Positions 1 through 64,000 of a DNA stretch of 64,000 nucleotides are shown here, piece after piece. The notes beneath the pieces were generated by a model that searched no databases, was not told the DNA's origin, and worked only from the letters and a program-made list of their open reading frames with translations. The stretch is from Rhizophagus irregularis. Its lineage: Eukaryota. The translations under genes were made by a program, and so were the position numbers. Within the stretch, counting starts at the first letter, position 1; each line of letters begins with the position of its first letter. The stretch spans positions 868,001 through 932,000 of the forward strand of contig NC_089429.1 in assembly GCF_026210795.1 (NCBI RefSeq), written 5' to 3'.

Positions 1-1219
1 ATTCTTAGCGACTTGCGTGATAAAGGTTGAGCTAACATTCTTGAAATTGTGTTGGCACGTTTAATGCTATTTAAATTTAGCATAATTTGTAATTTTCTTA
101 ATACACTATCTTTATGTCATTAGGATGTTTACCGAGAGTCAGCAAAAAATGTACTTGACAGATAATCCAACGCCTCATCAAAGACGTGATTGAGCAATCG
201 TTATTTTACTATGCATCTACGACTGATAATTTATTCAAATATTTCAATAATATTTACAGGCCTTTGTAACAGTTTAATAATTAATAATATACGTACGCTA
301 ATTAGTAAGAAATTTGATTTATAAATCAACTTTATAGGAGTGTTTAGGACTTAGAACACTTATTATTCATAATACAAAACCATATTGTTCACTTTAGTGG
401 ATAATTATACAAGTTTATCAAAAAGTTATATTATGATTAAGTTTAATACTATGATTTAATAGTAAATGAACGAATAATAAAATGTAATATACTTTAAGGA
501 TAATGGTCTGCAAATCTTGGACTAAATAAATTTTTTTAAACCAAAAATTAATAAAAAAATGCAAGCAACGTATTAATTATCAAATATCATTATTCCGTTT
601 TAAAATCTGTGGCCACAAAAAATATTATCCATTTATATTATAGTTTATGGCAATTTTTTTAATTGAAACTTAACATAAATGGAAAAAAAATGAGGTAAAT
701 AAATAAATCTATTAATTGCTAAAACTGCATTTTATCTTTATCGTTTGTGAGTAATGAAGTAGGTGAATATTTATAATTAACTCTATATGAATCATTGGAT
801 TAATAATAATGATATAAATAAAACTCGATATATAATCAGTTTTAATATTTGATTATTTTTCGCTGCAATTTCTTTCTATGTTAAGTGAGCAAAGGTAGTT
901 ATAGTCTATATAATAAATAAAACACTGCAGAAAAGGACCTCAGTTTATGAGTTTGGGTATTTAAAGTTTTAATTATTTATACAATCCCAAGACGTAATGA
1001 TAATTTGGAAATAGCCAAGTATTATATTATTTGATTTTTTTTCGCGAGTTCGAAGTTTTCATCATTTGACTAGTGACGTAAAATTTTGATCATCTCACGT
1101 GATTAATGATTAATTACTCATGCGAAAAAAATCATAAATCATTCCATTCCATTACTTTTACGAAAAATTCTTGCTCTTTTTTTTTTTTTAAAAAAAAAAA
1201 AGCAAAAAATTCGTGAAAC

Positions 1220-2133: not shown

Positions 2134-4737
2134 TTTATTTATTTATTTTATGTGAAGCCGGACAGACTATTAAACAGGACATATACCACACGTGAGTTAT
2201 CCTACTTCTAGCTATCATCTATCACCAGGGCGGACCCAAACTTCTTTAAAAATGTTGGAACCAGCCTGATCCTCCTCCACTACCGAAAGAAGAACAGGAA
2301 CCACAATTAAAAAGTGAACTAATTAACCCGTATTTTTCTTTCAACCATCAAGGTCACCACCTGTAAATACTGTCATAGGTGGAATGATTCACACTGTTTG
2401 TAATTGTTAATATCTATTTTAATACGAACCAAAAAAATTCAAAAAATGAATTACAAAATATAGAAACTAAACTATTTCAAAATACGAAATTTAAAAATTA
2501 GGTCTATATTAGCGGGTAAGAAGTCTTCTTCTTTAGTATCCCTACAATCGAAAGTACAAATTTTTTTTGTTAAAGGTGTAAGATCTCCATAATAATTATA
2601 GTGATTATGTCTGGCGCGATGCTTTTTTGGGCGACATTCTATTATTTTCGTGTCATCGGAGGTATCACTGAGATCATCTTTTACGTATTGAATATCATTT
2701 GGGCGAATAATAGCGCAGTACGGTTTTAAAGGGTAGTGTTCATCCCTGTATTGTTGTCCAAAATCTGTTATCAAATTGTTGAGATGTCTTGAAGCGACTG
2801 TTCGTTTGTCGTTGCTTTTCTTCGTAGATGCTCCATACGCAAAATTGCGAATACTGGCCATACGGTCATCAAAATTATCATTCATACGAGTAAAAAACTT
2901 TATAGCATTAATACGTCTAAGGTAATGTTTGGCGGAGGTATTATGATCCTTAATGTCTTTAATGACATTTAACCTTTCATTAAGACGATCACGAACTCTG
3001 ATCTCACTGATGCGATCTTCATCTAAACCTAGCATATATGCGTCTCTCAAGGATAGCTGAATTGTAGAGTCTTGTAATAAAAGTACGGCATCTATGTATT
3101 CTGATGCACCTTTACCATAATGTTCGTCAATAAGATTTGCGATATACCAATCCCTATAAGAGTTTTCTGATGTATCATCCCTGCCATTGTTGGCTGAAGA
3201 GTCATCCTCTTCATCTGAATTCTGAATCTTGATGACACTGCGTGATGCAGGAGTAATGTGAGGAGGAAGAATCCTATCTTCAGAAAGATGTAAAAGAGCG
3301 CAGTTCCGATCGTATGGAAAACGGAATAAGGGAACGGTTGGGAGATGAAGGATCCGTGTATAAATCTTTTGATACAGATGAAAAAGGAACTTCCTTTGAT
3401 TCGCAAGTTTAATCTTGTGGCAGAGTTTAAGGGCCATCCTAGATTTAGGTTTATTACCATTGAAAATACGTTGACAAGATCGGTCAAAATGAGCTTTTTG
3501 CCGTGCAGCAGTACGTAAATTAGAACTTAAAATGCAAGAAAAGTTCTCATAAATCTTGGTATACATAGGACCAGTAGCCTTGTTAGGGGGTAAAATTGAG
3601 TCAAGGTTGTGTGCTTCATAACGCGTTGTATAAGAGATGCCCAATCGATTCGAAAAAATCTTTTGCCTTGAGTTATTGTTATATTTCTCGTAAATAATGT
3701 TGGCGTGAAAACTTTTGTGATGAATAATATTGATCTCAGGTGCTGATGTTGCCTTATCCTCTGAGAGTGTGTTTTTTTCTTGAGTGATAGCCGAATGGTG
3801 TTGGATGCAAGCGTGTCGATTAAAATTTTTAACAAAAGGGCACGGTATATGGCATGGTGTTGTTTTTTGATGAGGAAACTTTTTTGTAGGTAGGTGATTA
3901 CAAGCTACATAGATACCAAAGTGAAATCTGTATCGTTTATAAGAGAAGTTGAAAAAAGTTTTGGTAATATTGTTGCTGCACGTGATTTTTCCTTCACGTA
4001 ATGCTATCAGATTGATTCTATCTAACAACTTGAGTCGTATCATGTTAAAAAATTTGTTCTGAATACGCCGAGGAATGACTCGTTGATGTAAAAAAAAGTG
4101 CGTGAGGCATTTCGATATTTGAAATCGATGATTAGGTAATTTGCTTGTGGAATAATACCGAATTGGGGTTGATAACATATGATGATCGTTTATGTATATT
4201 TTAAGGTGAATTTCATTGGTGTCTGGTATTTGATCGACAACCTCAAAAAAGAAACTTTTTGAACGCCTACATTCATAGATCTTATTATAACCTGCTTTGG
4301 ACGCAGCAGTCACATGAAATTTTTTGAAAGAGACCAAAAAAGAGAAGGTCGAAAGTATTGGTGAGGGTAAAGGAGCTTTGACTATGATAGTCGGAAGTGC
4401 GTTATCCTGTGGTTTAATATTCATCCTTAAAACTTTATCTTTAGAAAGTCCGCCTTCAGGAATGTTTCTTCTGTTATCGAAGTGTACATCCAACTGCGGA
4501 TAAGGTTCCAAAGGTTCATATGAGGCCAAGGAAAAGTTGGTATTTTTGTTGTTTGAAGATGACATAGTCCCTTAATATTGGGATAAGATAAGAATAAAAC
4601 CTTGTATGAGAACCAAGACGCCCAACAGGGCCTTTTTCCCCTTAAAGTTTTCGTGAAAAACTATAGAAAAATAACCAAGCGCAAAATACTGCGGAAAACT
4701 AACAAAATAAAAAAAAAGGGGAAAGAGTTTTTTTTTT
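2134..4737 (-). mobile_element. Full-length retroposed, RT-less protein-coding element, copy A
   Basis: 16-bp direct repeat TAACCAATTACAGTAT at 2118-2133 and 4738-4753. Minus-strand 3' end ...CTTCACATAAAATAAATAAAAATA; 5' end A-run+CTCTTTCCCCTTTT. Termini and ORF are homologous to 42788-45443. Confidence 0.85.
2472..4565 (-). CDS. 697-aa basic protein of unknown function encoded by element copy A
   Basis: Intronless ORF, more GC-rich than its flanks. Paralogous to 43344-45272 (38/54 identities in the KFHVT...SxPI block). Candidate Zn ligands CNH...C...RHACIxHH. Confidence 0.85.
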   Translation of the reverse strand: MSSSNNKNTNFSLASYEPLEPYPQLDVHFDNRRNIPEGGLSKDKVLRMNIKPQDNALPTIIVKAPLPSPILSTFSFLVSFKKFHVTAASKAGYNKIYECRRSKSFFFEVVDQIPDTNEIHLKIYINDHHMLSTPIRYYSTSKLPNHRFQISKCLTHFFLHQRVIPRRIQNKFFNMIRLKLLDRINLIALREGKITCSNNITKTFFNFSYKRYRFHFGIYVACNHLPTKKFPHQKTTPCHIPCPFVKNFNRHACIQHHSAITQEKNTLSEDKATSAPEINIIHHKSFHANIIYEKYNNNSRQKIFSNRLGISYTTRYEAHNLDSILPPNKATGPMYTKIYENFSCILSSNLRTAARQKAHFDRSCQRIFNGNKPKSRMALKLCHKIKLANQRKFLFHLYQKIYTRILHLPTVPLFRFPYDRNCALLHLSEDRILPPHITPASRSVIKIQNSDEEDDSSANNGRDDTSENSYRDWYIANLIDEHYGKGASEYIDAVLLLQDSTIQLSLRDAYMLGLDEDRISEIRVRDRLNERLNVIKDIKDHNTSAKHYLRRINAIKFFTRMNDNFDDRMASIRNFAYGASTKKSNDKRTVASRHLNNLITDFGQQYRDEHYPLKPYCAIIRPNDIQYVKDDLSDTSDDTKIIECRPKKHRARHNHYNYYGDLTPLTKKICTFDCRDTKEEDFLPANIDLIFKFRILK

Positions 4738-5016
4738 TAACCAATTACAGTATATTTTATTGTCTGGAGGACGATATCAAAAAATTTGTGGTCACGGTTC
4801 ACCCACGTGATCCTCAGCCAATAAAATCGCCTCCCATTTCCTAGTTATACAATTTAGCCTTATTATTTATCTTCATTATATTTCACCAATTTTTAACAAG
4901 CTATTATTTAAGCTTAAGAAAAAAATATTAATAAGCTTATTTGAAAATGAGAACGAATAATTTTATGTAGAAATCGGAGTATTATACGTTATGAACTATA
5001 ATACTATAACCATTAG

Positions 5017-7627: not shown

Positions 7628-10600
7628 TTACTTTGCATGAATTTGTTCTAATCTATTTTGAGCATTTTGATTTCCTTGCAATGCAGATTGTTTATACCAG
7701 TAAATTGCTTGATTTATATCTTTAACAATCACTTCTCCATTCTCATACATAAAAGCAAGATTATATTGAGCTATACTAATATTTCCTAAATCTGCTGATT
7801 TTTGAAATAATTCAAATGCCTTTTTTTCATCAATTTCAGTTTCAATTCCTTTTTTATAACAATTACCTAAATTATTCATTCCATATGCATTTCCTAAATC
7901 TGCTGATTTTTGATATAATTCAAATGCCTTTTTTACATCAATATTAGTTCCAATTCCTTTTTTATAACAATTACCTAAATTATTTATTCCACCTGCATTT
8001 CCTAAATCTGCTGATTTTTGGTATAATTCAAATGCCTTTTTTTCATCAATATCAGTTCCAATTCCTTTTTTATAACAATTACCTAAATGATTTATTCCAC
8101 CTGCATTTCCTAAATCTGCTGATTTTTGAAATAATTCAAATGCCTTTTTTTCATCAATATCAGTTCCAATTCCTTTTTCATAACAATTACCTAAATTATT
8201 CATTCCATATGCATTTCCTAAATCTGCTGATTTTTGATATAATTCAAATGCCTTTTTTACATCAATATCAGTTCCAATTCCTTTTTTATAACAATTACCT
8301 AAATGATTTATTCCACCTGCATTTCCTAAATCTGCTGATTTTTGAAATAATTCAAATGCCTTTTTTTCATCAATATCAGTTCCAATTCCTTTTTCATAAC
8401 AATTACCTAAATTATTCATTCCATATGCATTTCCTAAATCTGCTGATTTTTGATATAATTCAAATGCCTTTTTTACATCAATATCAGTTCCAATTCCTTT
8501 TTTATAACAATTACCTAAATGATTTATTCCACCTGCATTTCCTAAATCTGCTGATTTTTGAAATAATTCAAATGCCTTTTTTTCATCAATATCAGTTCCA
8601 ATTCCTTTTTCATAACAATCACCTAAATTACTTATTCCAGTTGCATTTTCTAAATCTGCTGATTTTTGGTATAATTCAAATGCCTTTTTTACATCAATAT
8701 CAGTTCCAATTCCTTTTTTATAACAACCACCTAAATGATTTATTCCACCTGCATTTCTTAAATCTGCTGACTTTTGATATAATTCAAATGCCTTTTTTTC
8801 ATCAATATCAGTTCCAATTCCTTTTTTATAACAACCACCTAAATGATTTATTCCACCTGCATTTCCTAAATCTGCTGACTTTTGATATAATTCAAATGCC
8901 TTTTTTTCATCAATATAAGTTCCAATTCCTTTTTTATAACAATTACCTAAATTATTCATTCCACTTGTATTTCCTAAATCTGCTGATTTTTGATATAATT
9001 CAAATGCCTTTTTTTCATCAATATCAGTTCCAATTCCTTTTTTATAACAATCACCTAAATTACTTATTCCAGTTGCATTTCCTAAATCTGCTGATTTTTG
9101 ATATAATTCAAATGCCTTTTTTTTATCAATATCAGTTCCAATTCCTTTTTTATAACAATAACCTAAATTACTTATTCCATTTGAATATTCTCTTTCAGCT
9201 AATTTTTTAAATAATTCAAAAGCTTTATCATCATCTTTATAAACACCATTCCCATGTATATAACAGCAACCAAGGTTATATTGTGCTATAATATTTCCTG
9301 AATTTGCAGCTATCTGATATAATTCAAATGCCTTTTTTTTATCAATATTAATTTCAATTCCTAAATAATTAAAATCTCCAAGTAAAACAATAGAATTTGA
9401 ATGATTTTGATTATTTAATAACCAAATATAAATTTCCTGTGAAGTCATATTATGATTATTAAGATAATTATAAATACATAGTCTTTCTAATTCTTCATAT
9501 TCTACGCCTGCCTTATCAGAAAGTTCAACAATTTCATCAACCATCACCTTAAAATTATTATTTGATGATATTGAAGAATCTATTTCTTTAGTATTCATCT
9601 TGTTAAATTCTTGAATAAATTTGGATAATTCCCCATGTGATGAATTATTTATAGGATCTTCAAAAGCATTCAAATCGAGTTGTTGTTTACTGGATAATTG
9701 GTTTGTATAAGAATCATTTGCCCGAAAATCTTTTATAATCATGTTATTATTATTCTTCAGAATAATTGCATTTAATTTAAAAACCACCTGATTGATAGTT
9801 GGACGATTATCTGGTTCATTATTCCAACAATCTAAAAAAAATAGATAGAATTAATTTAACATTAATATAAACATAAAATTAATTATTAATTATATTTACC
9901 AGTATAAATATTCACATAATCTTCGGGTGTATCAGGAATGGGTGTCTCTCTAAGGCCTTGTGATATATTAATAGCTAAACAAACGTCATATGGTTTACCT
10001 TCAGTATAAAAAGGAGGATTGCTACTAGATATCTCCCATAAAAGTACTCCAATACTATAAATATCACTTTTTTTATTTAATTTATAATCTTGATTACTGA
10101 AACTTTTTGGGTCAATATAAGGAATTACTCCAAATAATTTCGTTGAAGAAAGGTTGGATGATTCTTCAATTCTTTTTGATAAACCAAAATCTGCTAATTT
10201 AACTATATTTTGATGAACTAATACATTTTTGGAATGCTATTAATATTATTAAATACAATAAATTTATTAATTACAATTCAACAACAAACATGAAATAACA
10301 AAATGTAAACAAATGAATTACCAAATCACGGTGAATAATTCCTTCATCGTGTAAGCATAATATAGCACAAGCCAACTGAAATGCCATATTAAACTTATTA
10401 TTCCAAGTAAGATTATCAAAATGTTCCTTCAAATATTCTCGAAGAGTACCTCCATTTGCATATTCCATTACTAACCAATATTTTTTTGAATTATCAACCT
10501 GATTTTCTTTGTAAAAAAAAAATAAATAAAACAATAAATTTATATTTTACAATCAAATTATGCATGAAAAGAAAGTATATTGTACCTGTTGCAATACCAC

Positions 10601-12270: not shown

Positions 12271-12373
12271 TTACTTAAAAAAACACTATATAAATGCTGT
12301 AATTTCACCTTGATAATTTTTACATAATTTCACTTTGAAATTAAATTTAATATTTAAAAATAATTTATTAAAT

Positions 12374-14629
12374 ATGGCAGATGATAGTAGTTATATTCTA
12401 CCTTCAAGTGATGATGACTTTAGTGAAGAAATTACTAATGAAATGGTCCAAATACCAGAATTACCAGTAGCTACAAGTGAAATAGAACAAATAAATGTAA
12501 TTAGTATACCTGACTCAACAGTTCAAATATCAGCTAAATTACAAACAAAAGTAAGTAGTTGGGTATGGAAATATTTTATTAAAGATTATAATAATAAAGG
12601 TGAAATACGTGCATATTGTCAATTTGTAATGGAAAATGGAGATAAATGTACAAAGAATTATAAATATGATGGATCTACAGGAAACCTTAGTAGTCATATT
12701 ATTAAACATGGAATTATACCACCTACAGCAGCAGAAAATTTACCTGCTGCTGAAATTAAATCAAAGCCTATACAATCTATTGATAATATTGGACAAAAAG
12801 AAAAGGAAGAATCTACATTACGATGGATTCTATTGACAACACAACCCCTTTCAACTGTAATTCACAAAGCCTATATTGAACATATGCATATCATAGATCC
12901 AGAATTTATAGTTCCTGGAGAGAGGAAAATTAGAATGATGATTGCTCAAAGTTATGGATATAATAGAAACAAATTAAAGCAATTTTTAAAATCTGCCCAA
13001 TCCATTTCTTTGACCACTGATTTGTGGTCTTCTAGGTCAAAACATGGTTATTTAGGTTTAACAGCAACTTGGATTAATCAAAATTTTGAAATAACAGATA
13101 TTTTACTTGAAATATCCTATTTTCCAGCACCACATACTGCAGATAAAATTGCACAAACTATTAAAATGATTATCCAAAAATGGGAAATTGAAAACCTTAT
13201 AGTATCAATTACAACTGACAATGGTGCTAATGTAGTAGCTGCTATTCGTGAATTAGCACCAATTGAAAGGTTTTCCTGTGCAGCACATACTTTACAATTA
13301 GCTATTGGAAAGGGTTTAAAACTTGTGGAAGATTTAGCAATACGTGCAAGACAGTTAATTAATTTTTTTTCAACTCAAAAACAGATTGAACGATTAGTTA
13401 AAATACAAAAAGATAATGGTTATGAGGAGCAATTACATTTAATACAAGATATTCCCACTAGGTAAATAAAAATTTTAAATCTTTAATTTTGTTTACAAAT
13501 TACAATATAATGCTAATATATTTAATTTTATTTCAATTATTTAAGATGGAATTCAACTTATTTAGCATGGGATCGTCTTATTTTCCTTCAATGTGCTATT
13601 CTTCAGCTTAATGTAAATTTATCTTGTTCTTTAATACGTGAAGAAAAAGCTGATAGTATCAAATTGAAAAAAATTATGTTGAGTGATAATGAATGGGAAT
13701 TACTAGATGAATTATGTAATATTTTGTCACCATTTGAAAAAGCTACACGAGATTTGTCTGGAAATACTTATGTTACATTAAGTCAAGTGGTTCCTATTAT
13801 TACAAGACTTACAAATTCTTTAAATCCATCTGGTAATTTATATGAAGAAGAACCTGATGATAGTTTTAATGATTTAGAAGAAGAAAATTCAACTAACCAG
13901 CAAACTAATTATGATAATATTAGAGAAACTTTAGAAAATGTAAAGAAAAATATTTACAGAAGTTTGAGATACTATTGGAAAATACCAAACGAGTTTGGTA
14001 TTATGGCAGCACTTTTAGACCCAAGATATAAGAATCTTGATTTTATTTCTGATGATAGTATAAAGAGAAAATTTCATTCTACTTTAAGAACACGATATGA
14101 CCAATTAAAATGGGATATAAGTCAGCAAAGTATTCCATCATCACCTACAACTGTTACTTCTGCTGAAAGTTTAATTGCTGGAAGTTCAACTCCAAGTAGA
14201 TCTTTACGTGACCATAAAGCAAGACGTGAACAAAAAGCAAAAGAAGTATTTCAAAGAACAGAAATCCCTACATCATCAATGGAGGATGAAATTACAAGCT
14301 ATCTTCTTATGCCAATTGCAAGGGAAAATAAAAATCCATTAGATTGGTGGAGAGTAAAACGTGAAATTTTTCCAATTCTCTCTTTAATTGCACAAAAGTA
14401 CTTAGGTATTCCTGCTACCTCTGTAGCTTCTGAGCGACTTTTCTCTGATGCAGGAAATCATATTACATCAAAAAGAAATTCATTGGACCCTGGCCTATTG
14501 GGAAAAATGATATTTTTAAAGCGTAATATGCAAACAATGGATCATATTAATGTGTTTCCTCCAGATTTAGATGTGGAAAAGAGTAATTCAGAAGAATATT
14601 TATCTGAATGTGAATTTGAGGAATGGTAA
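12374..14629 (+). CDS. hAT transposase with BED zinc finger (723 aa; exons 12374-13461, 13546-14629)
   Basis: SWVWKYF..C..C..STGNLSSHIIKH BED finger; TTDLWS, TTDNGAN, CAAHTLQL, TR|WNSTY across the intron; PATSVASERLFS dimerisation motif. No stops after splicing. Confidence 0.93.
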
Positions 14630-34448: not shown

Positions 34449-34963
34449 TACTTTTTATTTTCTTCTTTATTGAGACAAATGATATCATTTATAATTTATC
34501 GATTATCATTGAAGTTTTCTTTTGAGAATTGTAAGAATAAATAGAAACATGAAATAAAAATTATGCATGGTGCTAAATCAAATATAATTATTATGGTATG
34601 TATCGAAAAATAAACTTTTAACCAATAAATTTTAAAGATTCATATGATCGTTTAAAAATTCGGATAGGATTAACCCGGATAAAACCTAATTTAATGAATG
34701 TATCCGGATTAACGATCCGGATTTGCATCCGAATTGCCTAAATAGATTTTTGTCACAGTGACGTGATTTTAGGACACGATTACTAAGGGGGGGGGCATCC
34801 GGAATTTACTTAAATTAACTAAAAAAAGGAACGATTTACAAATTTTTTTATTGCAGGTCATATTGTTGCCTTTTTATGGAATATTTAATAAATTGTACTC
34901 GAAAATTGATAAATTTGCATCCATTGTGAAATGAAAGCAAACTCTTTTTTTTCTTCAACCAAC

Positions 34964-36583
34964 ATGACATGTTCAAAAATATTTTCAGGAGATTTACCAG
35001 AATTAACAAATGAAATTATACAACATTTTAGAAAAGATTTTTCAACATTACATTCGTGTATTTTAGTTAATAGATTTTGGTGTCGTTTAGCGATTCCATT
35101 ATTATGGGAAAGTCCTTTTTCAATTCCTACTCGAAATTGTCATTATATTGAAGTTTACTTACGCCATTTAAATGATGAAGGTAAAGCAAAATTTAATGAA
35201 TATGGAATCAATAATGATTTATTAAGTTCAAATACATTATTCAACTATCCCAGTTTTATCAAACATTTAAATATAAGTAGCATTTATTTTTCTATTAAAG
35301 AGTGGGTTGGTACTTTGGTGATTAAGAATAATGAAAAACTAGAAAAATTAGTTTATAGATCATTATTTGAAGTGTTCCTTGAAAATGAAGGAATTTTAAA
35401 TTCTTTTGAAATTGTGATGTTTATGAATATTGTAAATTTTAATGATACTATGGAATTAATTTTACAAAATCCAAATTTTATATATAATATTAGAAATTTA
35501 AAATTTCATACCTATAATATTTCATTTCAAAACATCGTTCCTTTTTTAAAATTTTTATGTTCTAATTGCAATTTAATCACATCACTTCATTTTTATTTTT
35601 ATTTTGCTTTATCTAATATTAATGATTTTTCATTAATTGAAAAATATTTATCACAGATAATTATGTCACAACATAATCTCAAAATAATTTCATTTGGATC
35701 TAGTAATGCTATTTTATATCACCCATTTTTATCATTAAAAAATTCTAATTGTTCAAATACTTTAAATACGATTATATTTGATAATATTGATTTTAAAAAT
35801 ATAATTACTATTTTAAAAAAAGTATTCGATCATCTGAATGTTTTAGATTCTATTCATATCCTTTATTGTGATTCTTTGAATTCCGATTTTGTTCAACAAA
35901 TCATTAAGGTTATTAAACCTTTTAAATTGAGATCTTTATTTATGAAGGAAATATTATACATTGAATCATTACATTTGTTATTACAAAAATGTGGAGATTA
36001 TTTAGAAAATTTTGAATTTGGATCTATGCGTGAAGAATATGAAGAATCAAGACAACAATTTCTTAAATTAATTATGAAATATTGTACAAAAATTAGACGC
36101 TTTACTTCAACTATGCCTGATGATAATAATATTTATCAATTAATTGAAAATACTAAACAAACCATTAATTATCTTACTATTGATAATTATTATGACGAAT
36201 TAGGTTCAATTGTATTACAAAACTTGGGTCAAGTTCTTCCTTTTAAATTAGAATATTTACGATTATCACTTTCATTTAATTCAAATGATTTTGAAATATT
36301 TTTAAAAAATTCTCAAAATACTTTTATTAAGAAATTATTAATTAGTAATATGATGCAAAATGAAAGTGTAAGTATTTTATTTTATATAAAAAAATATATT
36401 ATGAGAAGGGAAAGGGTTAAATATTTGGCTTTTTCGGAATTTTTTCCTGATATTGATACGGATGAAGAATTGTTTTTTTTAGAACATGAAGTAAATGAAT
36501 TTAAATTACATAATATTATAGTTCAAAAATATTCTGATTTATATATTTCTGTATATAATATTATTTACAATTTTAATAAGTAA
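34964..36583 (+). CDS. F-box-like / LRR protein (~539 aa from MTCSKIFSGDLPEL; an in-frame upstream ATG lies at 34931)
   Basis: LPELTNEIIQHFRKDFSTLHSCILVNRFWCRLAIPLLWE. Paralogue of 59257-60900, where the equivalent upstream ATG is out of frame. Confidence 0.87.
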   Translation: MTCSKIFSGDLPELTNEIIQHFRKDFSTLHSCILVNRFWCRLAIPLLWESPFSIPTRNCHYIEVYLRHLNDEGKAKFNEYGINNDLLSSNTLFNYPSFIKHLNISSIYFSIKEWVGTLVIKNNEKLEKLVYRSLFEVFLENEGILNSFEIVMFMNIVNFNDTMELILQNPNFIYNIRNLKFHTYNISFQNIVPFLKFLCSNCNLITSLHFYFYFALSNINDFSLIEKYLSQIIMSQHNLKIISFGSSNAILYHPFLSLKNSNCSNTLNTIIFDNIDFKNIITILKKVFDHLNVLDSIHILYCDSLNSDFVQQIIKVIKPFKLRSLFMKEILYIESLHLLLQKCGDYLENFEFGSMREEYEESRQQFLKLIMKYCTKIRRFTSTMPDDNNIYQLIENTKQTINYLTIDNYYDELGSIVLQNLGQVLPFKLEYLRLSLSFNSNDFEIFLKNSQNTFIKKLLISNMMQNESVSILFYIKKYIMRRERVKYLAFSEFFPDIDTDEELFFLEHEVNEFKLHNIIVQKYSDLYISVYNIIYNFNK

Positions 36584-42420: not shown

Positions 42421-42787
42421 GGTGGTATTGAGGGTATATAAATACTTTTTTCAAATACATAGTGACTAATAATGAGATAATATCTTTCCGTTTCTTCCGA
42501 CTGTTTTTTACAATCACAAAACTTGCTTTTCTATAAAATATTGGAAGAATGAAAAAAAAAAGTGTCAAAATGACGTTAGAGTTGTCAAAATGACTAATAA
42601 TTGAATCATAGAAAAAATCATATGTTCATGATCAATAAAAATAGACTTTTCGTACTACTCATATTGGTGGCACATCAAGTATTTTCCTATAGTATCTTTG
42701 TAATCTTGCGCAATACAATTGTTTAACAATAAGGGGCTGACTGAACTAGGAAAGAATAGCAGATAATCGCATTATTAATTATTATTT

Positions 42788-45443
42788 ATTTATTTTATGT
42801 GAAGACGGACAGACTATTAACAGGACATAAACGTAACTGTGCTATCCTACTTCTAGCTATCATCCCCCCGAAGATGGACCCGAACTTCTTTAAATCCAAT
42901 GAGCCAGAATGATCCCCTCCCCTACCAGAAAGAAACCAATGAACCGAAAGAAAGAAAATGATAAAGGACACTGACTAAATATTAAGAAGTTGTGGCAATC
43001 TACACATTATAAATAGCAAAATTCAATTAATTGACGAGCATTAATCCGTATTTTTCTTTCAACCACAAGGGTTGCCACCTGTAAATACTGTAAGAGGTGG
43101 AATGGTTTACACTATTTTAAGTTGTGAAAAATCTAACGTAAAAAAAAGGACTAAAATGCTAAAAAGCATGTACAAAAAGAAACTAATATATGTATAAGTG
43201 GTTATGTTAAAATGACTAACGAGTACTTAAGTAGTACGAGTAGAGGAACTGTTTTCTAAATCCTTTGAAGCGGATAATATACAAACTTTTTTATCTATAT
43301 GATAGCCATAGTGAGTATCTAAATTGCCATTATCTCTGGCCTTTCATTTAAGCGGTCGATCGTCCATGATAGCACAAGGCTGATATGCCAGACTATAATC
43401 TTTCTTATAGTATTCCATGTAAAAGATATCTTCCTCATTGCTAACCCGAGAACGTAAGTCTGCTAAGATTTCAGTATCTTCCTGTTTTTTCCGATCAAAT
43501 TCTTTTAGTTTTTGTAAGTGACATTTTTCGCGTTTTTTGCGTTCGCTGTTATTAATCGGTCCAGTTACAATTGGTAATTCAGGAGGTACTGACGATGAAA
43601 TCTCTAATAATTTCATTTCATATTCATGTTTGTGGTTTGTGACTTGCATTACAAGACTGCAAAGATTACTCCGATATTCGCCTTGATCAGGGGTGGTTTC
43701 CCATTGTATTCCAGCGTCGATTTTTCCTTGTAGATATTTGGTCCTTGATACGTGTTCATCATAAATTACTTTCATGAAGGCTAACCAGCCATCACTGCCG
43801 ACTGCAAGCGGTTGTAAATTCTTTTTCCAGATTTTACCACGAGAAGGTTGATTAAATCGGCCTCCTTCGTAAATATCATATGGAGGAATTAAAGGAATGT
43901 AATGTTCAGGTACATTCTCCCAAATGTTTGTATTGACTGGGGATATAGAATTAGCCGTCGGTGTAGGTGCGACAGAGCTATCGTTGCAAATCGGTTCCAC
44001 TATAGCAGGTACAGATACTGTCCTTGGTTTATGAAAAGGGATTGGAAAGGTATAATAACCTTTTGTCGGTATGACAAATCTTTTCTTGTATCGAAGATGT
44101 TTAATGGGAGTGATAAAACTTTGATTTTCTTGGAATAATAATTTGTGATGTCGTGCAACGTGGAGTTTATCATCCGGTAGCGCATTGTCATCCAACTTGG
44201 CGTTATGAAAAGTGTGTCTAATCAGACCATTAAAACGTGCTTCTTGTCTTTTCTTTACCTTTGGACAAGAACTGGGAGTGAATTGAAAATTCCCATAAGT
44301 TTTGCCATAAATAAAATCAAGTCCTTTTGTAGCAACGACGTTAGTATTATATGCGTGGTATGATGTGGTGAAAGAGATTCCCAATCGGGTCGAAAAATTC
44401 TGATGAAATTTCTTTTTAGTCCATCTGTTGTAGAGGCGAGATGCGTGGAAATCTTTGAATGTTTTGCAACGACTAAAGTCAGGAATTTTGTTATCCTTCG
44501 AAATATAGTATAGAACTAGATTCTTATGGTGGATGATACAGGCATGACGATCATGTGACATTGTAAAAGGGACCGGGATAGAGCAAGTCGCAGTAGTATT
44601 GGGAAGTAAACCTACTGTGTGAGTGTGATTGCATGGGAGGTAAATTCCAAAATAAAATCTATATTTTTTATACGAAAAATTAAAAAAAGTTTTAGTCATA
44701 TGATTATTTTTGTCTTTTTTTTGGGCACATGATCTTATAAAATCCAAACGCTCCAATAGTTTTTTACGAATAAGTGTAAAAAATTTGTCTTGCAATTTTC
44801 GAGGAATAACTTTTTGTGTTGAAAAAAAGTGCGTGAGCTGTTTCGATATTTGAAATTTGAAATTAGGGAGTCGGCTCGTGGATTCATGATTAATCGGGTT
44901 AGAGGACATATGATAATCATTTGTGTAAATCTTCAATTGAAGTTGATTGGTGTCTGGTAAATGATCAACCAGCTCAAAAAAGAAACTTTTTGAGCGCCTA
45001 AAATTGTAAATCTTGTTATAACCGGCTCTATGGTGTGGAGTCACGTGGAACTTTTCGTATTTTGTAGAAAAAATATAAGTTTTGTTAGGCGAAGAGAAAG
45101 GCCTAATATCATCAAAGTCGTTATGAAATGAAGGTGTATCCGATAAAATGTTATCAATAGGAGGTACTGTTTGTAAAGTATCATGGTTGAAAATGAAATC
45201 ATTAGGACCAGCAGGTGTATAGTCGTATCCGGGTGCAAGAGCAAAATCGTCGGCTCTTGGAAAATAAGACATAACCAACCCTTAAATATGGGTATAATGA
45301 GAACAGTAAAACCTCGTCTTATGCCCGAGGTGCCCTGTAGGGCCTCTTCCCTTTAGTTGTTTCAAATAGAAACTAAAAAAAAGAAACTTGCACAAAATTA
45401 CTGCGGAAAATTACCGAAATGAAGGAAAAGGGGAAAGAGTTTT
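42788..45443 (-). mobile_element. Full-length retroposed, RT-less protein-coding element, copy B
   Basis: 21-bp direct repeat TCGCATTATTAATTATTATTT at 42767-42787 and 45444-45464. 3' end ...CTTCACATAAAATAAATAAAT; 5' end AAAACTCTTTCCCCTTTT. Homologous to 2134-4737. Confidence 0.87.
43344..45272 (-). CDS. ~642-aa basic protein of unknown function (copy B); stop at 43344-43346 is probably premature, with the frame continuing to 43227
   Basis: ATG at 45272 follows the conserved CCC-N8-GGG hairpin, as in copy A. Read-through gives RPLK*KARDNGNLDTHYGYHIDKKVC, which aligns with RPKKHRARHNHYNYYGDLTPLTKKIC of copy A. Confidence 0.82.
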   Translation of the reverse strand: MSYFPRADDFALAPGYDYTPAGPNDFIFNHDTLQTVPPIDNILSDTPSFHNDFDDIRPFSSPNKTYIFSTKYEKFHVTPHHRAGYNKIYNFRRSKSFFFELVDHLPDTNQLQLKIYTNDYHMSSNPINHESTSRLPNFKFQISKQLTHFFSTQKVIPRKLQDKFFTLIRKKLLERLDFIRSCAQKKDKNNHMTKTFFNFSYKKYRFYFGIYLPCNHTHTVGLLPNTTATCSIPVPFTMSHDRHACIIHHKNLVLYYISKDNKIPDFSRCKTFKDFHASRLYNRWTKKKFHQNFSTRLGISFTTSYHAYNTNVVATKGLDFIYGKTYGNFQFTPSSCPKVKKRQEARFNGLIRHTFHNAKLDDNALPDDKLHVARHHKLLFQENQSFITPIKHLRYKKRFVIPTKGYYTFPIPFHKPRTVSVPAIVEPICNDSSVAPTPTANSISPVNTNIWENVPEHYIPLIPPYDIYEGGRFNQPSRGKIWKKNLQPLAVGSDGWLAFMKVIYDEHVSRTKYLQGKIDAGIQWETTPDQGEYRSNLCSLVMQVTNHKHEYEMKLLEISSSVPPELPIVTGPINNSERKKREKCHLQKLKEFDRKKQEDTEILADLRSRVSNEEDIFYMEYYKKDYSLAYQPCAIMDDRPLK

Positions 45444-45691
45444 TCGCATTATTAATTATTATTTTTATTTATCTGTAAGGCGTCAACCACTTTATACAAA
45501 TCACGTGATATAATCTTATATTTACTAAGGAGTGGATAAATTATAATCCCGTCTCGCGACTCTCGCGTCCCATTCAAAATTACGAATCATAATCCCAAAA
45601 AATTCAAAATCTCACACTCATTATCCCAAAACTTATTATCTTTTTTTTTTAAAAAAAAAATTTTACATTATTATTTTTCTTTTAGATGTAA

Positions 45692-54640: not shown

Positions 54641-54799
54641 TACTCACTGCCGTCTCCATCATTTGTTGCTCAGTAAAATAACATATCACTTTTCAGTTTT
54701 CCGTTATTTTAATGATTTTGATGAAAGCAACATGGCCCATATTAACTTTATTTTCGTTGTTATACTTTAAATGTCTGGAAAGTAGTCTTTTGGGTATTT

Positions 54800-55965
54800 C
54801 AATGGAGCAGCATGATGCTATACGTGGGTGGGAGTATAGCGTGCTTACTTTGTAAGCCTGTGAGTACCAGCTTTTGCTGCAGTCTCATGGTAGGGCTGGT
54901 TGGGAATTTGGAGCGGTATAGTACTATGCGAGGGTTGGAGCATAGACGCTTACTTTTAGTAAGCTCGTGGGTACCAGCTTTTGCTGCAGTCCTGCGATAG
55001 GACCGAAGGTAAGTGCACTTTTTTGTTATTTTCAGCTTTTTATTTTTTTTTATGATTTTTTTTATTTCTTCATTATTTTTAGCTTTGGGCAAAATTTTTA
55101 TTGGAGCAGCATGATGCTATACGTGGGTGGGAGTATAGCGTGCTTACTTTGTAAGCCTGTGAGTACCAGCTTTTGCTGCAGTCTCACAGTAGGGCTGGTT
55201 GGGAATTTGGAGCGGTATAGTACTATGCGAGGGTTGGAGCATAGACGCTTACTTTTAGTAAGCTCGTGGGTACCAGCTTTTGCTGCAGTCCTGCGATAGG
55301 ACCGAAGGTAAGTGCACTTTTTTGTTATTTTTCAGTTTTTTTATTTTTTTTTATGATTTTTTTTATTTCTTCATTATTTTTAGCTTTGGGTAAAATTTTT
55401 ATTGGAGCAGCATGATGCTATGCGTTGGGTGGGAGCATAGTGTGCTTACTTTGTAAGCCTGTGAGTACCAGCTTTTGCTGCAGTCTCACAGTAGGGCTGA
55501 ATCAAAGGTTAGTGCACTTTTTATTATTTTTCAGTTTTTATTTTTATTTTTTGTTATTTTTTTATTTCTTCATTATTTTTAGCATTGGGTATTTTTATTG
55601 GAACAGCATAATGCTATGCGTTGGGTGGGAGCATAGTGTGCTTACTTTGTAAGCCTGTGAGTACCAGCTTTTGCTGCAGTCTCACAGTAGGGCTGCTGGA
55701 CCAAAGGTAAGTGCACTTTTTGTTATTTTTTAGTTTTTTTTTTATTTTTTTTATGATTTTTTTATTTCTTCATTAATTTTAGCTTTGGGTATTTTTATTG
55801 GGGCAGCATGATGCTATGCGTTGGGTGGGAGCATAGTGTGCTTACTTTGTAAGCCTGTGAGTACCAGCTTTTGCTGTAGTCTCATAGTAGGGCTGGTTGG
55901 TTGTGGTACAGCATGGTGCTATGCGTAATTTTCATGGGAGGAGCATAGTGCGCTTCTTAGGAAGT
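54800..55965 (+). repeat. Tandem array of ~200-300-bp units: hairpin-rich GC core plus ~75-nt intron-like spacer
   Basis: Repeated GCTATACG..GTATAGC, GCTTACTTTGTAAGC and CAGCTTTTGCTG hairpins. Spacers run AAG|GTAAGTGCAC...TTTTAG|CTTTGGG. Confidence 0.9.
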
Positions 55966-58818: not shown

Positions 58819-59256
58819 ATTGTATATAGTATAGGGAATATTTATACAAAGTTTCAAGTTTCGCCTACGCAGCCACGCGTATTCACCTTCGCCCATCAAT
58901 TTTTTTCCGATGACTTCATATCATCACACAATGATGCAATTTAATTTATTTTGTTATAATAATAATATGTTTAAATATGATTTTATAATGATTTTCATAA
59001 TATTTTTACTAATATTTTACCAAGTTATTTAAGAAATTCGTCATATGTTATATGTGATCGACAAATGATCTGCAAAGTATGTCTGAGAATAGATAACAAG
59101 AGATCGGCGTGCCGGAATTACTTGTGTTTATTATCAAAAAAAGGAACGATTCACATATTATTTTTATTTCTATTTGTAGTACAACATACGTTACGAAAAA
59201 TTAATAAATTTTGTTCCCAATTGTGAAATGAAAGCCGCTTCTCTTTCTTCGCCAAC

Positions 59257-60900
59257 ATGGCATGCTCAAAAATATTTACAGGATATTTGCCCGAATTAAC
59301 AAATGAAATTATACAAAATTTTAGAAAAGATTTTTCAACATTACATTCGTGTATTTTAGTTAATAGATTTTGGTGTCGTTTAGCGATTCCATTATTATGG
59401 GAAGATCCATTTTCAATTCCTTCCCAAAATTATCGTTGTATTGAAATTTATTTACATTTTTTAAATGAAGATAGCAAAGCAAAATTTAATGAATATGAAA
59501 ATATTAAAATTTTAATACCTACAAATACATTATTTAATTATCCTAGTTTTACTAAATATTTAAGTTTAAATAGTATTTGTTCTTCTGTTGAAAAATGGGT
59601 TGCTACTTTAGTGAATGATAATCGTGAGAACCTAGAGAGATTAGTTTATAGGTCATTATTTGAAGTATTACTTGAAAATGAAGGAAACTTACACTCTTTT
59701 GAATTTGTAATGTCTAGGAATGGTAGTAGTATTTGTACACATTTTAATAATACTATGGAATTGATTTTACAACATCCAAATTTTATTTGCAATATTAAAA
59801 ATTTGGCATTACATATTTTTCATGATATTTTCCTTCAAAATACCATAAATATCATTCCCTTTTTAAAATTTTTATATTCTAATTGTAATTCAATCTCATC
59901 AATTATTTTTCATTTTCGTATATATAATGTTGATAATTTTTCATTAATTGAAAAATGTTTATCACAATTAATTATTTCTCAACATAATCTCAAAATAATT
60001 TCATTTATTGCTTGTAGTACTATTTTATATAAACCATTTTTATCATTAAAAAATTCTAATTGTTCAGATACTTTAAATACAATTATATTTGATAGTATTG
60101 ACTTTAGAAATGTAATTACAGTTTTACAAGAAGTATTTGATCAATTGAATGTTTTAGAATCAATTCATATTCTTTATTGTTATTCTTTAAATTCTGATTT
60201 TGTTCAACAAATTATTAAGGTTAATAAACCTTTTAAATTGAAATCTTTATTTATAGATGAAATATTACACATTGAATCATTACAACTTTTATTACAAAAA
60301 TGTGGTGATTATTTAGAAAATTTTGAATATGGATATATGATCAAAAAGTATGAAGAATCAAGACGACAATTACTTAAATTAGTTATGAAATATTGTACAA
60401 AAATTATATATTTTACTTCAGATAAACCTGATGATATTAATATTTATTTATTAATTGAAAATATTGGACAAACTATCAATTATCTTACTATTCTAATGGA
60501 TGCTAGCAATAAATATAATTCAATTGTATTACAAAATTTAGGACAAGTTCTTCCTTCTAAATTAGAATATTTATATTTGTCACTTTCATTTAGTAATGAT
60601 TTTGAAACATTTTTAAAAAATTCTCAAAATACTTTTATTAAGAAATTATTAATTAGAAATATGTTAAAAGATGATAATAAAATTGTTTTATTTTATATTA
60701 AGGAATATATTATGAGGAAGAAAAGGGTTAAATATTTGGCTTTTTCAGAATTTGTTCCTGGTTACTCTTACACGGAAAAAGAATTGTTTTTCTTAAAAGA
60801 TGAGGTAAATGAATTTAAATTATATAATATTATAGTACAAAAGCATCGAGATTTATATATTTCTCAACATGATATTGTTAATATTAATATAGAATATTAA
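59257..60900 (+). CDS. F-box-like / LRR protein, 547 aa
   Basis: LPELTNEIIQNFRKDFSTLHSCILVNRFWCRLAIPLLWEDP; colinear paralogue of 34964-36583. Confidence 0.88.
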   Translation: MACSKIFTGYLPELTNEIIQNFRKDFSTLHSCILVNRFWCRLAIPLLWEDPFSIPSQNYRCIEIYLHFLNEDSKAKFNEYENIKILIPTNTLFNYPSFTKYLSLNSICSSVEKWVATLVNDNRENLERLVYRSLFEVLLENEGNLHSFEFVMSRNGSSICTHFNNTMELILQHPNFICNIKNLALHIFHDIFLQNTINIIPFLKFLYSNCNSISSIIFHFRIYNVDNFSLIEKCLSQLIISQHNLKIISFIACSTILYKPFLSLKNSNCSDTLNTIIFDSIDFRNVITVLQEVFDQLNVLESIHILYCYSLNSDFVQQIIKVNKPFKLKSLFIDEILHIESLQLLLQKCGDYLENFEYGYMIKKYEESRRQLLKLVMKYCTKIIYFTSDKPDDINIYLLIENIGQTINYLTILMDASNKYNSIVLQNLGQVLPSKLEYLYLSLSFSNDFETFLKNSQNTFIKKLLIRNMLKDDNKIVLFYIKEYIMRKKRVKYLAFSEFVPGYSYTEKELFFLKDEVNEFKLYNIIVQKHRDLYISQHDIVNINIEY

Positions 60901-62470: not shown

Positions 62471-62599
62471 GAGAAAGTGAACATTCACTATGGAAACTTT
62501 TTGCGCTGAGTTTAACTGTGCTGCTCAAAAAGAATGTTAACTTGACAGATCATGAAATAGTATGTTGATCATTTTTTATTAAAATGTGAAAAAAAAAAA

Positions 62600-64000
62600 A
62601 AAATTTGACGTTTTTGTGATTGAAAAATCAAAAAAAAATTAATTTTTTTTAATCAAAACGTCAGACTTGACGTTTTTGTGATTGAAAAATCAAAAATAAT
62701 TGATTTTTTTAATCAACTTGACGTTTCTGTGATTAAAAAATCAAAAAAAATGATTTTTTTAATCAAAAACGTCAGACTTGACGTTTTTGTGATTAAAAAA
62801 TAAAAAAAATGATTTTTTTAATCAAAAATGTCAGACTTGACGTTTTTGTGATTAAAAAATAAAAAAAAATGATTTTTTTAATCAAAAACGTCAGACTTGA
62901 CGTTTTTGTGATTAAAAAATCAAAAAAAAAATGATTTTTTTAATCAAAAACGTCAGACTTGACGTTTTTGTGATTAAAAAATCAAAAAAAATGATTTTTT
63001 TAATCAAAAACGTCAGACTTGACGCTTTTGTGATTAAAAAATCAAAAAAAATGATTTTTTTAATCAAAAACGTCAGACTTGACGTTTTTGTGATTAAAAA
63101 ATCAAAAAAAATGATTTTTTTAATCAAAAACGTCAGACTTGACGTTTTTGTGATTAAAAAATCATTTTTTTTGATTTTTATTAGCTAAGAACGTCAGACT
63201 TGACGTTTTTGTTATTAAAAATCAAGAAAATTTGATTTTTATTAGCTAAGAACGTCAGACTTGACGTTTTTGTTATTAAAAATCAAGGAAATTTGATTTT
63301 TATTAGCTAAGAATGTCAGACTTGACGTTTTTGTGATTAAAAAATCATTTTTTTTGATTTTTATTAGCTAAGAACGTCAGACTTGACGTTTTTGTTATTA
63401 AAAATCAAGAAAATTTGATTTTTATTAGCTAAGAACGTCAGACTTGACGTTTTTGTTATTAAAAAATCATTTTTTTTGATTTTTATTAGCTAAGAACGTC
63501 AGACTTGACGTTTTTGTTATTAAAAATCAAGAAAATTTGATTTTTATTAGCTAAGAACGTCAGACTTGACGTTTTTGTTATTAAAAATCAAGGAAAAATG
63601 ATTTTTATTAGCTAAAAACGTCAGACTTGACGTTTTTGTTATTAAAAATCAAGGAAAAATGATTTTTATTAGCTAAAAACGTCAGACTTGACGTTTTTGT
63701 TATTAAAAATCAAGGAAATTTGATTTTTATTAGCTAAGAATGTCAGACTTGACGTTTTTGTGATTAAAAAATCATTTTTTTTGATTTTTATTAGCTAAGA
63801 ACGTCAGACTTGACGTTTTTGTTATTAAAAATCAAGAAAATTTGATTTTTATTAGCTAAGAACGTCAGACTTGACGTTTTTGTTATTAAAAAATCATTTT
63901 TTTTGATTTTTATTAGCTAAGAACGTCAGACTTGACGTTTTTGTTATTAAAAATCAAGAAAATTTGATTTTTATTAGCTAAGAACGTCAGACTTGACGTT
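62600..64000. repeat. 58-60-bp palindromic satellite/minisatellite, running off the window end
   Basis: More than 20 units with invariant core AACGTCAGACTTGACGTT; two subtypes switching near 63165. Confidence 0.95.

Follow-up and report, generated by a model that had tools for sequence, protein, structure and literature searches.

Two DUF8211-encoding retroposons of Rhizophagus irregularis and the conserved signature at their 5' ends

Two insertions with exact target site duplications

The stretch of Rhizophagus irregularis DNA analysed here (contig NC_089429.1, positions 868,001 to 932,000 of the forward strand; 64,000 nt, referred to as the window) contains two related insertions, copies A and B, each encoding an intact protein of the DUF8211 family behind a conserved 5' leader. 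Both are on the minus strand, and their features are listed in Table 1. The insertions were bounded by exact target site duplications (TSDs) of variable length (16 nt for A, 21 nt for B), which lay at the precise edges of the similarity between the two copies. The tail common to A and B was A-rich and (TAAA)n-like, both terminating in CACATAAAATAAATAAATAA...; because the tail and the TSD overlap in copy B, its 3' edge can be placed only to within 6 nt.

Public sequencing runs were compared with the window as assembled contigs, and none of the runs is on record as RNA. Two of four runs (X3 and X9) each provided one contig representing an empty site for copy A, in which position 2107 was joined to position 4776; the 38 nt between these points contained a single copy of the TSD. 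The flanks of the empty-site contig differed from the window by 5–6 letters and a 29-nt gap, and it was therefore interpreted as a paralogous site, or the site in another nucleus. Given the exact TSDs, the (TAAA)n-like tail and the empty site, copies A and B are non-LTR (non-long terminal repeat) retroposons of the target-primed type, that is, the type of long interspersed nuclear elements (LINEs). Their identical 5' ends are likely to reflect full-length retroposition of an RNA with a fixed start. It is scarcely credible that A and B are instead ordinary paralogous host genes with conserved untranslated regions (UTRs) and no mobility. Both open reading frames (ORFs) are intact at only 43% identity, which does indicate selection on the protein; however, that explanation has to contend with 16-nt and 21-nt duplications placed exactly where the similarity ends, with the existence of an empty site, with the shared A-rich tail, and with ORFs that are uninterrupted and belong to a family of hundreds.

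No reverse transcriptase (RT) or endonuclease (EN) domain was found in the two DUF8211 ORFs, nor in 38 other ORFs of the window that were scanned. The element was therefore filed as non-autonomous and presumably mobilised in trans, and a LINE is the predicted source of that mobility. Mammalian HAL1, a non-autonomous LINE derivative that consists of ORF1 only, is similar in being a protein-coding retroposon without an RT of its own that is presumably mobilised in trans. The difference is that no relation of DUF8211 to LINE ORF1 proteins could be detected, nor to the Pfam families in the local copy of that database, and that it has no known parent LINE.

The two proteins, P0001 (copy A) and P0002 (copy B), shared 43% identity over 360 aa. 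Their homologues formed 74 clusters at 90% identity, all with a precomputed PF26638 (DUF8211) label; the named homologues all came from Rhizophagus (R. irregularis, R. diaphanus and R. clarus), plus three ENA proteins. A profile search returned 532 DUF8211 clusters at 50% identity, and no longer, fused form was found among its top 150 matches, all of which were 697 aa or shorter. A scan with the local copy of Pfam produced no match for P0001 and only a chance-level match for P0002 (E = 0.17), and did not return PF26638; the ESM Atlas contained no usable match, and a protein-based search of viral contigs found no DUF8211 relatives. A first structure model was poor (predicted local distance difference test, pLDDT, 56.5) and had no Foldseek match. 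An AlphaFold model of P0001 residues 60–420 (window 3306–4388, minus strand) reached a pLDDT of 87.2 and a predicted template modelling score (pTM) of 0.76. This second model had no Foldseek match at E<=0.001 in the PDB and no match at that threshold in BFVD (best, 0.049); VIA-align among 48,161 chains gave nothing above Z 3.2. Conserved cysteines and histidines of the domain (C222, C238, C253, H256 and H287 in P0001) hint at metal binding.

Table 1. Positions of the features of copies A and B, of related loci and of one neighbouring repeat array. Loci named L are contigs carrying relatives of the element; all other positions are those of the window.
Feature	Position	Strand	Description
Copy A, retroposon	2134-4737	-	2604 nt; 5' leader, ORF, 3' UTR, (TAAA)n-like tail; exact 16-nt TSD on both sides
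Copy A, 5' TSD	4738-4753	-	ATACTGTAATTGGTTA; identical partner at 2118-2133
Copy A, CACGTG E-box	4804-4809		Target DNA, outside the TSD; begins 70 nt upstream of the element's first base
Copy A, 5' hallmark	4687-4737	-	A10, CTCTTTCCCC, 23 variable nt, TTTTCCGCAGTA; from alignment of seven leaders and motif scan
Copy A, stem 1, 3' arm	4632-4643	-	
Copy A, hairpin 2	4620-4631	-	GCCC-UGUU-GGGC
Copy A, hairpin 3	4599-4619	-	
Copy A, stem 4	4568-4583	-	UCCC-N8-GGGA; 2 nt before the AUG
Copy A, ORF (P0001)	2472-4565	-	697 aa, intact, DUF8211 family; AUG at 4563-4565
Copy A, hairpin module	2309-2425	-	In the 3' UTR; 6-bp covarying stem, conserved 14-nt loop, then UGAAAGAAAAAUACGG
Copy A, 3'-terminal conserved block and (TAAA)n-like tail	2134-2250	-	
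Copy B, retroposon	42788-45443	-	~2656 nt; exact 21-nt direct repeat on both sides; ends homologous to those of copy A
Copy B, 5' TSD	45444-45464	-	AAATAATAATTAATAATGCGA; identical partner at 42767-42787
Copy B, CACGTG E-box	45502-45507		Begins 63 nt upstream of the A-run
Copy B, 5' hallmark	45399-45443	-	A4, CTCTTTCCCC, 23 variable nt, TTTTCCGCAGTA
Copy B, stem 1, 3' arm	45344-45354	-	
Copy B, hairpin 2	45332-45343	-	GCCC-UACA-GGGC
Copy B, hairpin 3	45311-45331	-	
Copy B, stem 4	45278-45293	-	Equivalent of stem 4 in copy A
Copy B, ORF (P0002)	43344-45272	-	642 aa, intact, DUF8211 family
Copy B, hairpin module	43029-43140	-	
Copy B, 3'-terminal conserved block and (TAAA)n-like tail	~42788-42894	-	
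L001, hairpin module	2915-3035		
L009, hairpin module	1002-1115		
L004, hairpin module	266-372		
L005, hairpin module	153-258		
L007, hairpin module	178-287		
L001, E-box-like site	~57-62		
L004, E-box-like site	2-7		
L006, E-box-like sites	~362-367 and 397-402		
L007, E-box-like site	3-7		
Sel1 frame, tandem repeats	7673-9376		

The leader and its stems

Before this analysis, two similar stretches had been noticed on the minus strand at 4566–4737 and 45273–45443, and were said to have an identical 5' end, an invariant element and four stems in the same order. All of this was verified. Both stretches occurred at these coordinates; their similarity began exactly at 4737 and 45443, beyond which the upstream flanks could not be aligned; UUUUCCGCAGUA matched nowhere else in the window (two matches, where 0.24 would be expected), and neither did CUCUUUCCCCUU as an exact sequence; and the four stems could be drawn as described in both copies. 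The leaders measured 171–172 nt with the initial run of adenines (A-run) counted. Over the leader, identity between A and B was 0.62–0.70; it was lower, at 0.47–0.57, in the initial ~250 nt of the coding region and climbed again in the conserved protein domain. Therefore, the leader is conserved in its own right.

The original prediction went further in stating that the stems covary, and this could not be established. Across stems 1–3 (22 pairs in two sequences), 90.9% of cells could pair, against 41–70% in slid controls; however, there was only one double change, and 239 of 500 shuffles were equally good. Two copies cannot establish covariation. The compensatory changes noted in stem 3 were real in that A and B differed there by one compensatory and two wobble-compatible changes, but the covariation was not significant, while the change from U-A to A-U in stem 4 requires the alignment to be shifted by one column. 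In stem 1, 4 of 24 cells were unpaired.

These observations bear on whether the leader is mainly a structured RNA, in which stem 1 and hairpins 2–4 have been selected for translation control, for stability or for binding by the protein that the element encodes (through packaging or cis-preference). This is rather unlikely, and it could coexist with an internal promoter in the clade of A and B. In its favour, the GC stem of hairpin 2 was invariant while three loops occurred among copies (UGUU, UACA and UAUA), and hairpin 3 accommodated the changes described above. Between A and B, 4 of the 20 stem positions of stems 2 and 3 differed, whereas 8 of the 13 positions in the loops did (Fisher p = 0.027), and pairing was kept in all four stem changes (P = 0.008 under random substitutions). 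The stems of copy A included G.U pairs, which are functional on the sense RNA only. Furthermore, the stem 1 duplex in a 110-nt context was superior to shuffled sequence (0/300 as good for A, 3/300 for B), and the fold energy of the leaders was modestly better than that of shuffles (z = -2.2 with 6/200 for A; z = -2.1 with 8/200 for B). The opposing evidence begins with the single double change and the shuffles that matched it. All four stem changes were transitions, and the probability that pairing was kept was 0.18 under a transitions-only null. Stem 1 was outside the minimum-free-energy fold of the whole leader of copy B, where the pairing probability of the first 6 nt was 0.04–0.07. Comparison with relatives, given below, showed stems 1–4 to be missing from four of them, while the motif at the 5' terminus was kept even where no partner pairs with it.

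Additional variation was available from copies resembling B in four public runs (16–22 contigs each). Two stem changes were seen among these, both of them pairing-neutral (G.U versus A-U, and G-C to G.U). At the first pair of hairpin 3, every contig covering that place had G.U (7, 9, 12 and 6 per run), where copy B of the window has A-U. The contigs also varied in the sequence linking stems 3 and 4 and contained an insertion in the loop of stem 4, and one loose-end variant had altered loops in both stems 2 and 3. This is suggestive, being the pattern of real hairpins, although it falls short of proof.

A protein-profile scan of soil metagenomes identified nine loci related to the element, with 30–52% protein identity. 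Stems 1–4 were not kept in the distant relatives L001, L004, L007 and L006. A stretch in L003 was related to the hairpin region of copy B, but was without the 5' arm of stem 3, and no homologous hairpins folded there. RNAalifold applied to five leaders returned no consensus pairs, and no Rfam family, ribozymes included, passed its gathering threshold in the window. Hairpins 2–3, and possibly stems 1 and 4, may be an RNA feature added specifically in the A/B clade, outside the conserved core, with a role in translation, stability or protein binding.

A search with the leader DNA pattern returned nothing from viral contigs and nothing from metagenome contigs. Three matches in bacterial metagenome-assembled genomes (40–51% GC) were treated as chance, as was the one weak match given by tblastn with P0001 and P0002, that of P0002 on L012 (E = 0.007, 28.9 bits); all others had E >= 2.

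Neither leader contained an upstream AUG, where ~2.9 would be expected (P(0) ~0.04–0.05), and ordinary cap-dependent scanning therefore fits. This is relevant to the suggestion that the leader is like an internal ribosome entry site (IRES), driving cap-independent translation of the ORF, which seems most improbable. Conservation of the leader and the position of hairpins near the AUG would agree with an IRES, and nothing further does; whereas the leader is short, its want of upstream AUGs is the mark of a scanned leader, a single ORF makes internal entry unneeded, and the leaders of distant relatives are quite different, with lengths of 260–340 nt.

The 5' hallmark and its possible function

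Six copies had a defined 5' end: A, B and the relatives L001, L004, L006 and L007, these four having 32–42% protein identity. The part of the leader kept in relatives was confined to the first ~45–50 nt. All six copies began with a terminal motif, comprising an A-run of 4–10 nt followed by CT[CT]TTTCY, while their upstream flanks were unrelated. A second motif, TTCYGCAGYA, was present in five of six, and its CYGCAG core started 34–35 nt downstream of the C of CTC. Between the two motifs lay ~23 nt that were not conserved; this spacer was A-rich in L001, L004 and L007, while in A and B the sequence from CUCUUUCC to CCGCAG was pyrimidine-rich and terminated in CAG. Beyond this hallmark, the leaders of the family varied in sequence and in length (165–340 nt). 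Contigs matching the first ~55 nt of copy A and then diverging were also found in public runs (nine in X3, nine in X9 and six in X16). A pairing partner for the terminal motif was not significant in L001, L004, L007 or L006 (shuffle fractions 0.17–0.55). Since the motifs were kept without a pairing partner, and the leader alignment had no consensus pairs, the deep constraint is on a linear signature with fixed spacing, and not on helices.

Other candidates and readings were rejected. The first motif was matched with two mismatches at window position 51933, but no second motif followed. A spliced leader was dismissed because the 23 nt between the motifs differ between lineages, and transcription by RNA polymerase III (Pol III) because of a U9 run at positions 11–19 of the leader of copy A.

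With about even odds, the leader can be read as the 5' UTR of a non-LTR-type retroposon, of which the terminal signature would be an internal core promoter for RNA polymerase II (Pol II) that fixes the RNA start. An element copied from RNA would lose any promoter upstream, and must then carry its start-site information downstream of the first base. A terminal motif with a second motif at a fixed distance would correspond to the layout of an initiator and a downstream core element. If the hallmark sets the RNA start, every full-length copy would begin at the same base; the exact 5' end shared by A and B was attributed to such an element-fixed start and full-length retroposition. Among the functions first proposed for the leader, which included a translation element, a packaging signal and a ribozyme, the internal promoter is the best fit and would explain the identical 5' ends.

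A number of observations weigh against a promoter. The A-run is inside the TSD-bounded insert, and the RNA consequently starts in or before it; a simple initiator of the TCT/TOP type, in which transcription starts at the C of the pyrimidine motif CTCTTTCC, does not fit. The second motif is missing from L006, and the first is missing from L002, a seventh copy that has the second motif and an uncertain 5' end. Hairpins 2–3 behave as hairpins do (stems kept, loops changed, G.U pairs on the sense strand only), and so the leader may function at the level of RNA. The E-box in the target DNA, described below, means that the flank may supply much of the promoter, and the hallmark could then act on RNA. 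Finally, no LINE partner was identified within this analysis; the only indirect sign of a partner sharing the 3' end was the depth of the 3' blocks, about ten times that of the ORF. In the DNA run X3, contig depth was 2561 and 4275 at the 3' blocks, against ~150–450 in most ORF bins. In run X19, which was guessed to be RNA, the 3' modules were at very high depth and the ORF had almost none; no conclusion was drawn from X19.

The constancy of a linear motif would also be expected if the hallmark were recognised in RNA as a linear site: as a mark of the 5' end for RT or second-strand synthesis, as a binding site for the DUF8211 protein, or as a splice acceptor for read-through host transcripts. 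Such a site is unlikely, though motif sequence and spacing are indeed kept without a conserved pairing partner, the upstream E-box in the target DNA could provide transcription from outside, and the pyrimidine-rich stretch of A and B with its CAG end has the appearance of an acceptor. The A-rich spacer of L001, L004 and L007 leaves these copies without a continuous pyrimidine tract, however, and splicing would delete the 5' terminus found in each copy.

A self-cleaving ribozyme, either like that of hepatitis delta virus (HDV) or of another kind, could trim a read-through RNA to its first base, as in R2 or L1Tc; this had been one of the options put forward, and for the present leader it is very hard to believe. 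An exact 5' end in both copies is what a ribozyme would leave, the first 12 nt of A and B can pair with a purine tract adjoining the GC hairpin, and there is a precedent in L1TcRz, which overlaps Pr77 (PMC3383444). Besides the absence of Rfam families at gathering threshold, a search of both elements at E<=1 returned only a chance-level snoR66 match (E = 0.27), and this was inside the coding region. An A-run that varies in length at the start fits a helix beginning at +1 poorly, and the terminal stem is missing in four other family members.

Pr77 is the closest of the known systems that were compared. Two papers (PMC4748587; PMC3383444) describe it as the first 77 nt of the trypanosomatid elements L1Tc and NARTc, and as a Pol II promoter located inside the element; coding and non-coding retroposons alike conserve both the sequence and the position of its downstream element, at +25 to +28. 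The resemblance is twofold: diverged retroposons, non-autonomous ones included (L1Tc, NARTc, ingi/RIME and DIREs), have a short sequence in common at their 5' extremity, and a small downstream motif is fixed in sequence and position. The differences are that there is no sequence similarity, and that the host in the present case is a fungus; that the second motif of the DUF8211 element lies ~34–45 nt from the start, in comparison with +25 to +28 as given for Pr77; and that here no HDV-like ribozyme was detected, a DUF8211 protein takes the place of RT and EN, and the promoter is putative.

Internal promoters are also found in the Drosophila elements jockey, Doc, I and F, which combine an initiator with a downstream promoter element, and in the 5' UTR of human L1, which has a YY1 site. 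In these, as proposed here, the promoter is downstream of the start and copied with the RNA, and the fixed spacing of motifs sets the 5' end. The motifs themselves differ, those of the DUF8211 element being an A-run and then a pyrimidine motif, with a putative promoter role.

Each of the six copies whose 5' end is defined had an E-box-like site, CAC[GC]TG, often followed by ATTT, 59–71 nt upstream of the A-run. It was CACGTG in A, B and L001 and CACCTG in L004 and L006; the contig of L007 begins with ACGTGATTT at this place, so that only ACGTG of the motif remains. In copy A, the E-box begins 71 nt upstream of an 11-A run made of the last A of the TSD and the ten of the element, and it belongs to flanking sequence that is present on the empty-site contig also. 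Relative to motif frequency in the window, CACGTG in three of six copies had P ~2e-6 and CAC[GC]TG in five of six P ~1e-10, with a position range that was picked post hoc; in a position-free test, GTGATTT was found in four of six flanks, and 51 of 2000 shuffles were as good. RiPho4, a helix-loop-helix (HLH) factor of R. irregularis, binds CACGTG/T in promoters (PMC9895418). The upstream sites suggest that insertion is targeted downstream of an E-box, although six copies are too few for certainty. Each copy would in that case combine an upstream activator site from its target with a core promoter of its own.

Position-specific integration near bound factors occurs in Dictyostelium TRE5-A and yeast Ty3, at Pol III genes, and in fission yeast Tf1, at Pol II promoters. 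Their insertions likewise keep a more or less fixed distance from a site in the target DNA to which a protein binds. The site differs here, being an E-box of HLH-factor type (CAC[GC]TG, often with ATTT), and targeting is a proposal based on six copies. A broader and somewhat doubtful conjecture is that DUF8211 elements are an undescribed, Glomeromycota-wide group of protein-coding retroposons without RT, with a fold unmatched among solved structures and in BFVD, which would integrate ~40–50 bp downstream of an HLH-type (A)TCAC[GC]TGATTT site. New copies would then unite a host activator with their own hallmark core promoter, in an instance of LINE-type integration at the site of a Pol II transcription factor.

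Repeats make up about half of the genomes of arbuscular mycorrhizal fungi, in which about two-thirds of the transposable elements are unclassified (PMC11075540). One such family is now defined end to end, with its termini, TSDs, 5' signature, covarying module and lineage-specific protein family. A literature search found no publication mentioning DUF8211 and, by title, none on this Rhizophagus retroposon. The motifs were absent from the supplementary text of PMC11075540; the family may already be in the curated library of transposable elements of that study under an 'unknown' label. A non-autonomous retroposon with a 5' hallmark is a known kind of element, and the variations that are new concern the protein, the hallmark motifs, a movable hairpin module and possible targeting to E-boxes. 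Should the 5' signature prove to be an internal core promoter, fungi would have an equivalent of the Pr77 hallmark of trypanosomatids, and a compact promoter would become available for a group of fungi in which engineering is difficult. Should the association with E-boxes extend across the genome, it would add a new example of retroposons that choose to insert beside a transcription-factor site, and the activity of the element could be tied to the host regulators that bind there, for instance those of phosphate starvation signalling.

The hairpin module, the 3' block and the surroundings

While the leader stems did not covary significantly, a stem that truly covaries was found elsewhere in the element, outside the coordinates flagged originally. 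This belongs to a hairpin module of ~110 nt. In four sequences, 100% of cells could pair, five of six pairs were double-changed and 1 of 500 shuffles was as good. In seven sequences, 97.6% of cells paired, all six pairs were double-changed and no shuffle of 500 was as good, in an alignment fitted to the model; a covariance model of the module had found three further loci. Some lineages carry the module in the 3' UTR, whereas in L004, L005 and L007 it precedes the ORF and is part of the 5' UTR. In DNA run X3, its contig depth was ~10x that of the ORF, and many contigs diverged on both sides of it. Given this depth and two-sided divergence, the module may occur in other contexts too.

The eel element UnaL2 is one of a 'stringent' LINE/SINE pair (SINE, short interspersed nuclear element), in which the RT recognises a 3' stem-loop. 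The DUF8211 element is comparable in having a hairpin whose stem covaries and whose loop is conserved, as well as a conserved 3'-terminal stem ahead of a tail of short repeats. They differ in that the module stands 5' of the ORF in the three relatives named above, which recognition of the 3' end alone does not explain. Within the 3'-terminal ~100 nt a long stem is predicted, with arms that are identical in A and B and a loop of ~15 nt that differs.

The window as a whole is AT-rich, GC content being 0.21–0.37 per 2 kb, and contains neither transfer RNA genes nor Rfam matches at gathering scores. Domains on nearby ORFs included a hAT transposase, Sel1 repeats, tyrosine-kinase-like kinases and an F-box. 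At 7628–9850 on the minus strand, an open frame of 740 codons was made up of Sel1 repeats (fifteen units of 36 residues), which corresponded to a tandem array of 108-bp period with 93–97% identity, and was followed by fragments of a kinase domain at 9889–10546; Sel1-repeat frames and kinase fragments of this sort are an expanded gene type typical of mycorrhizal fungi. Two adjoining open frames at 12317–14629 on the plus strand, the second with a hAT dimerisation domain and an RNase-H-like fold, are probably a hAT transposase split by a stop codon or an intron. Two ORFs of ~556 aa without a Pfam match, at 34913–36583 and 59227–60900 on the plus strand, were part of a segmental duplication with 83–89% identity, ~24.3 kb apart. 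A long tandem array with a period of 60–61 bp occupied 62565–63963, reaching nearly to the end of the window, and direct repeats of ~200–300 bp were clustered in a GC-richer stretch at 54797–55895.

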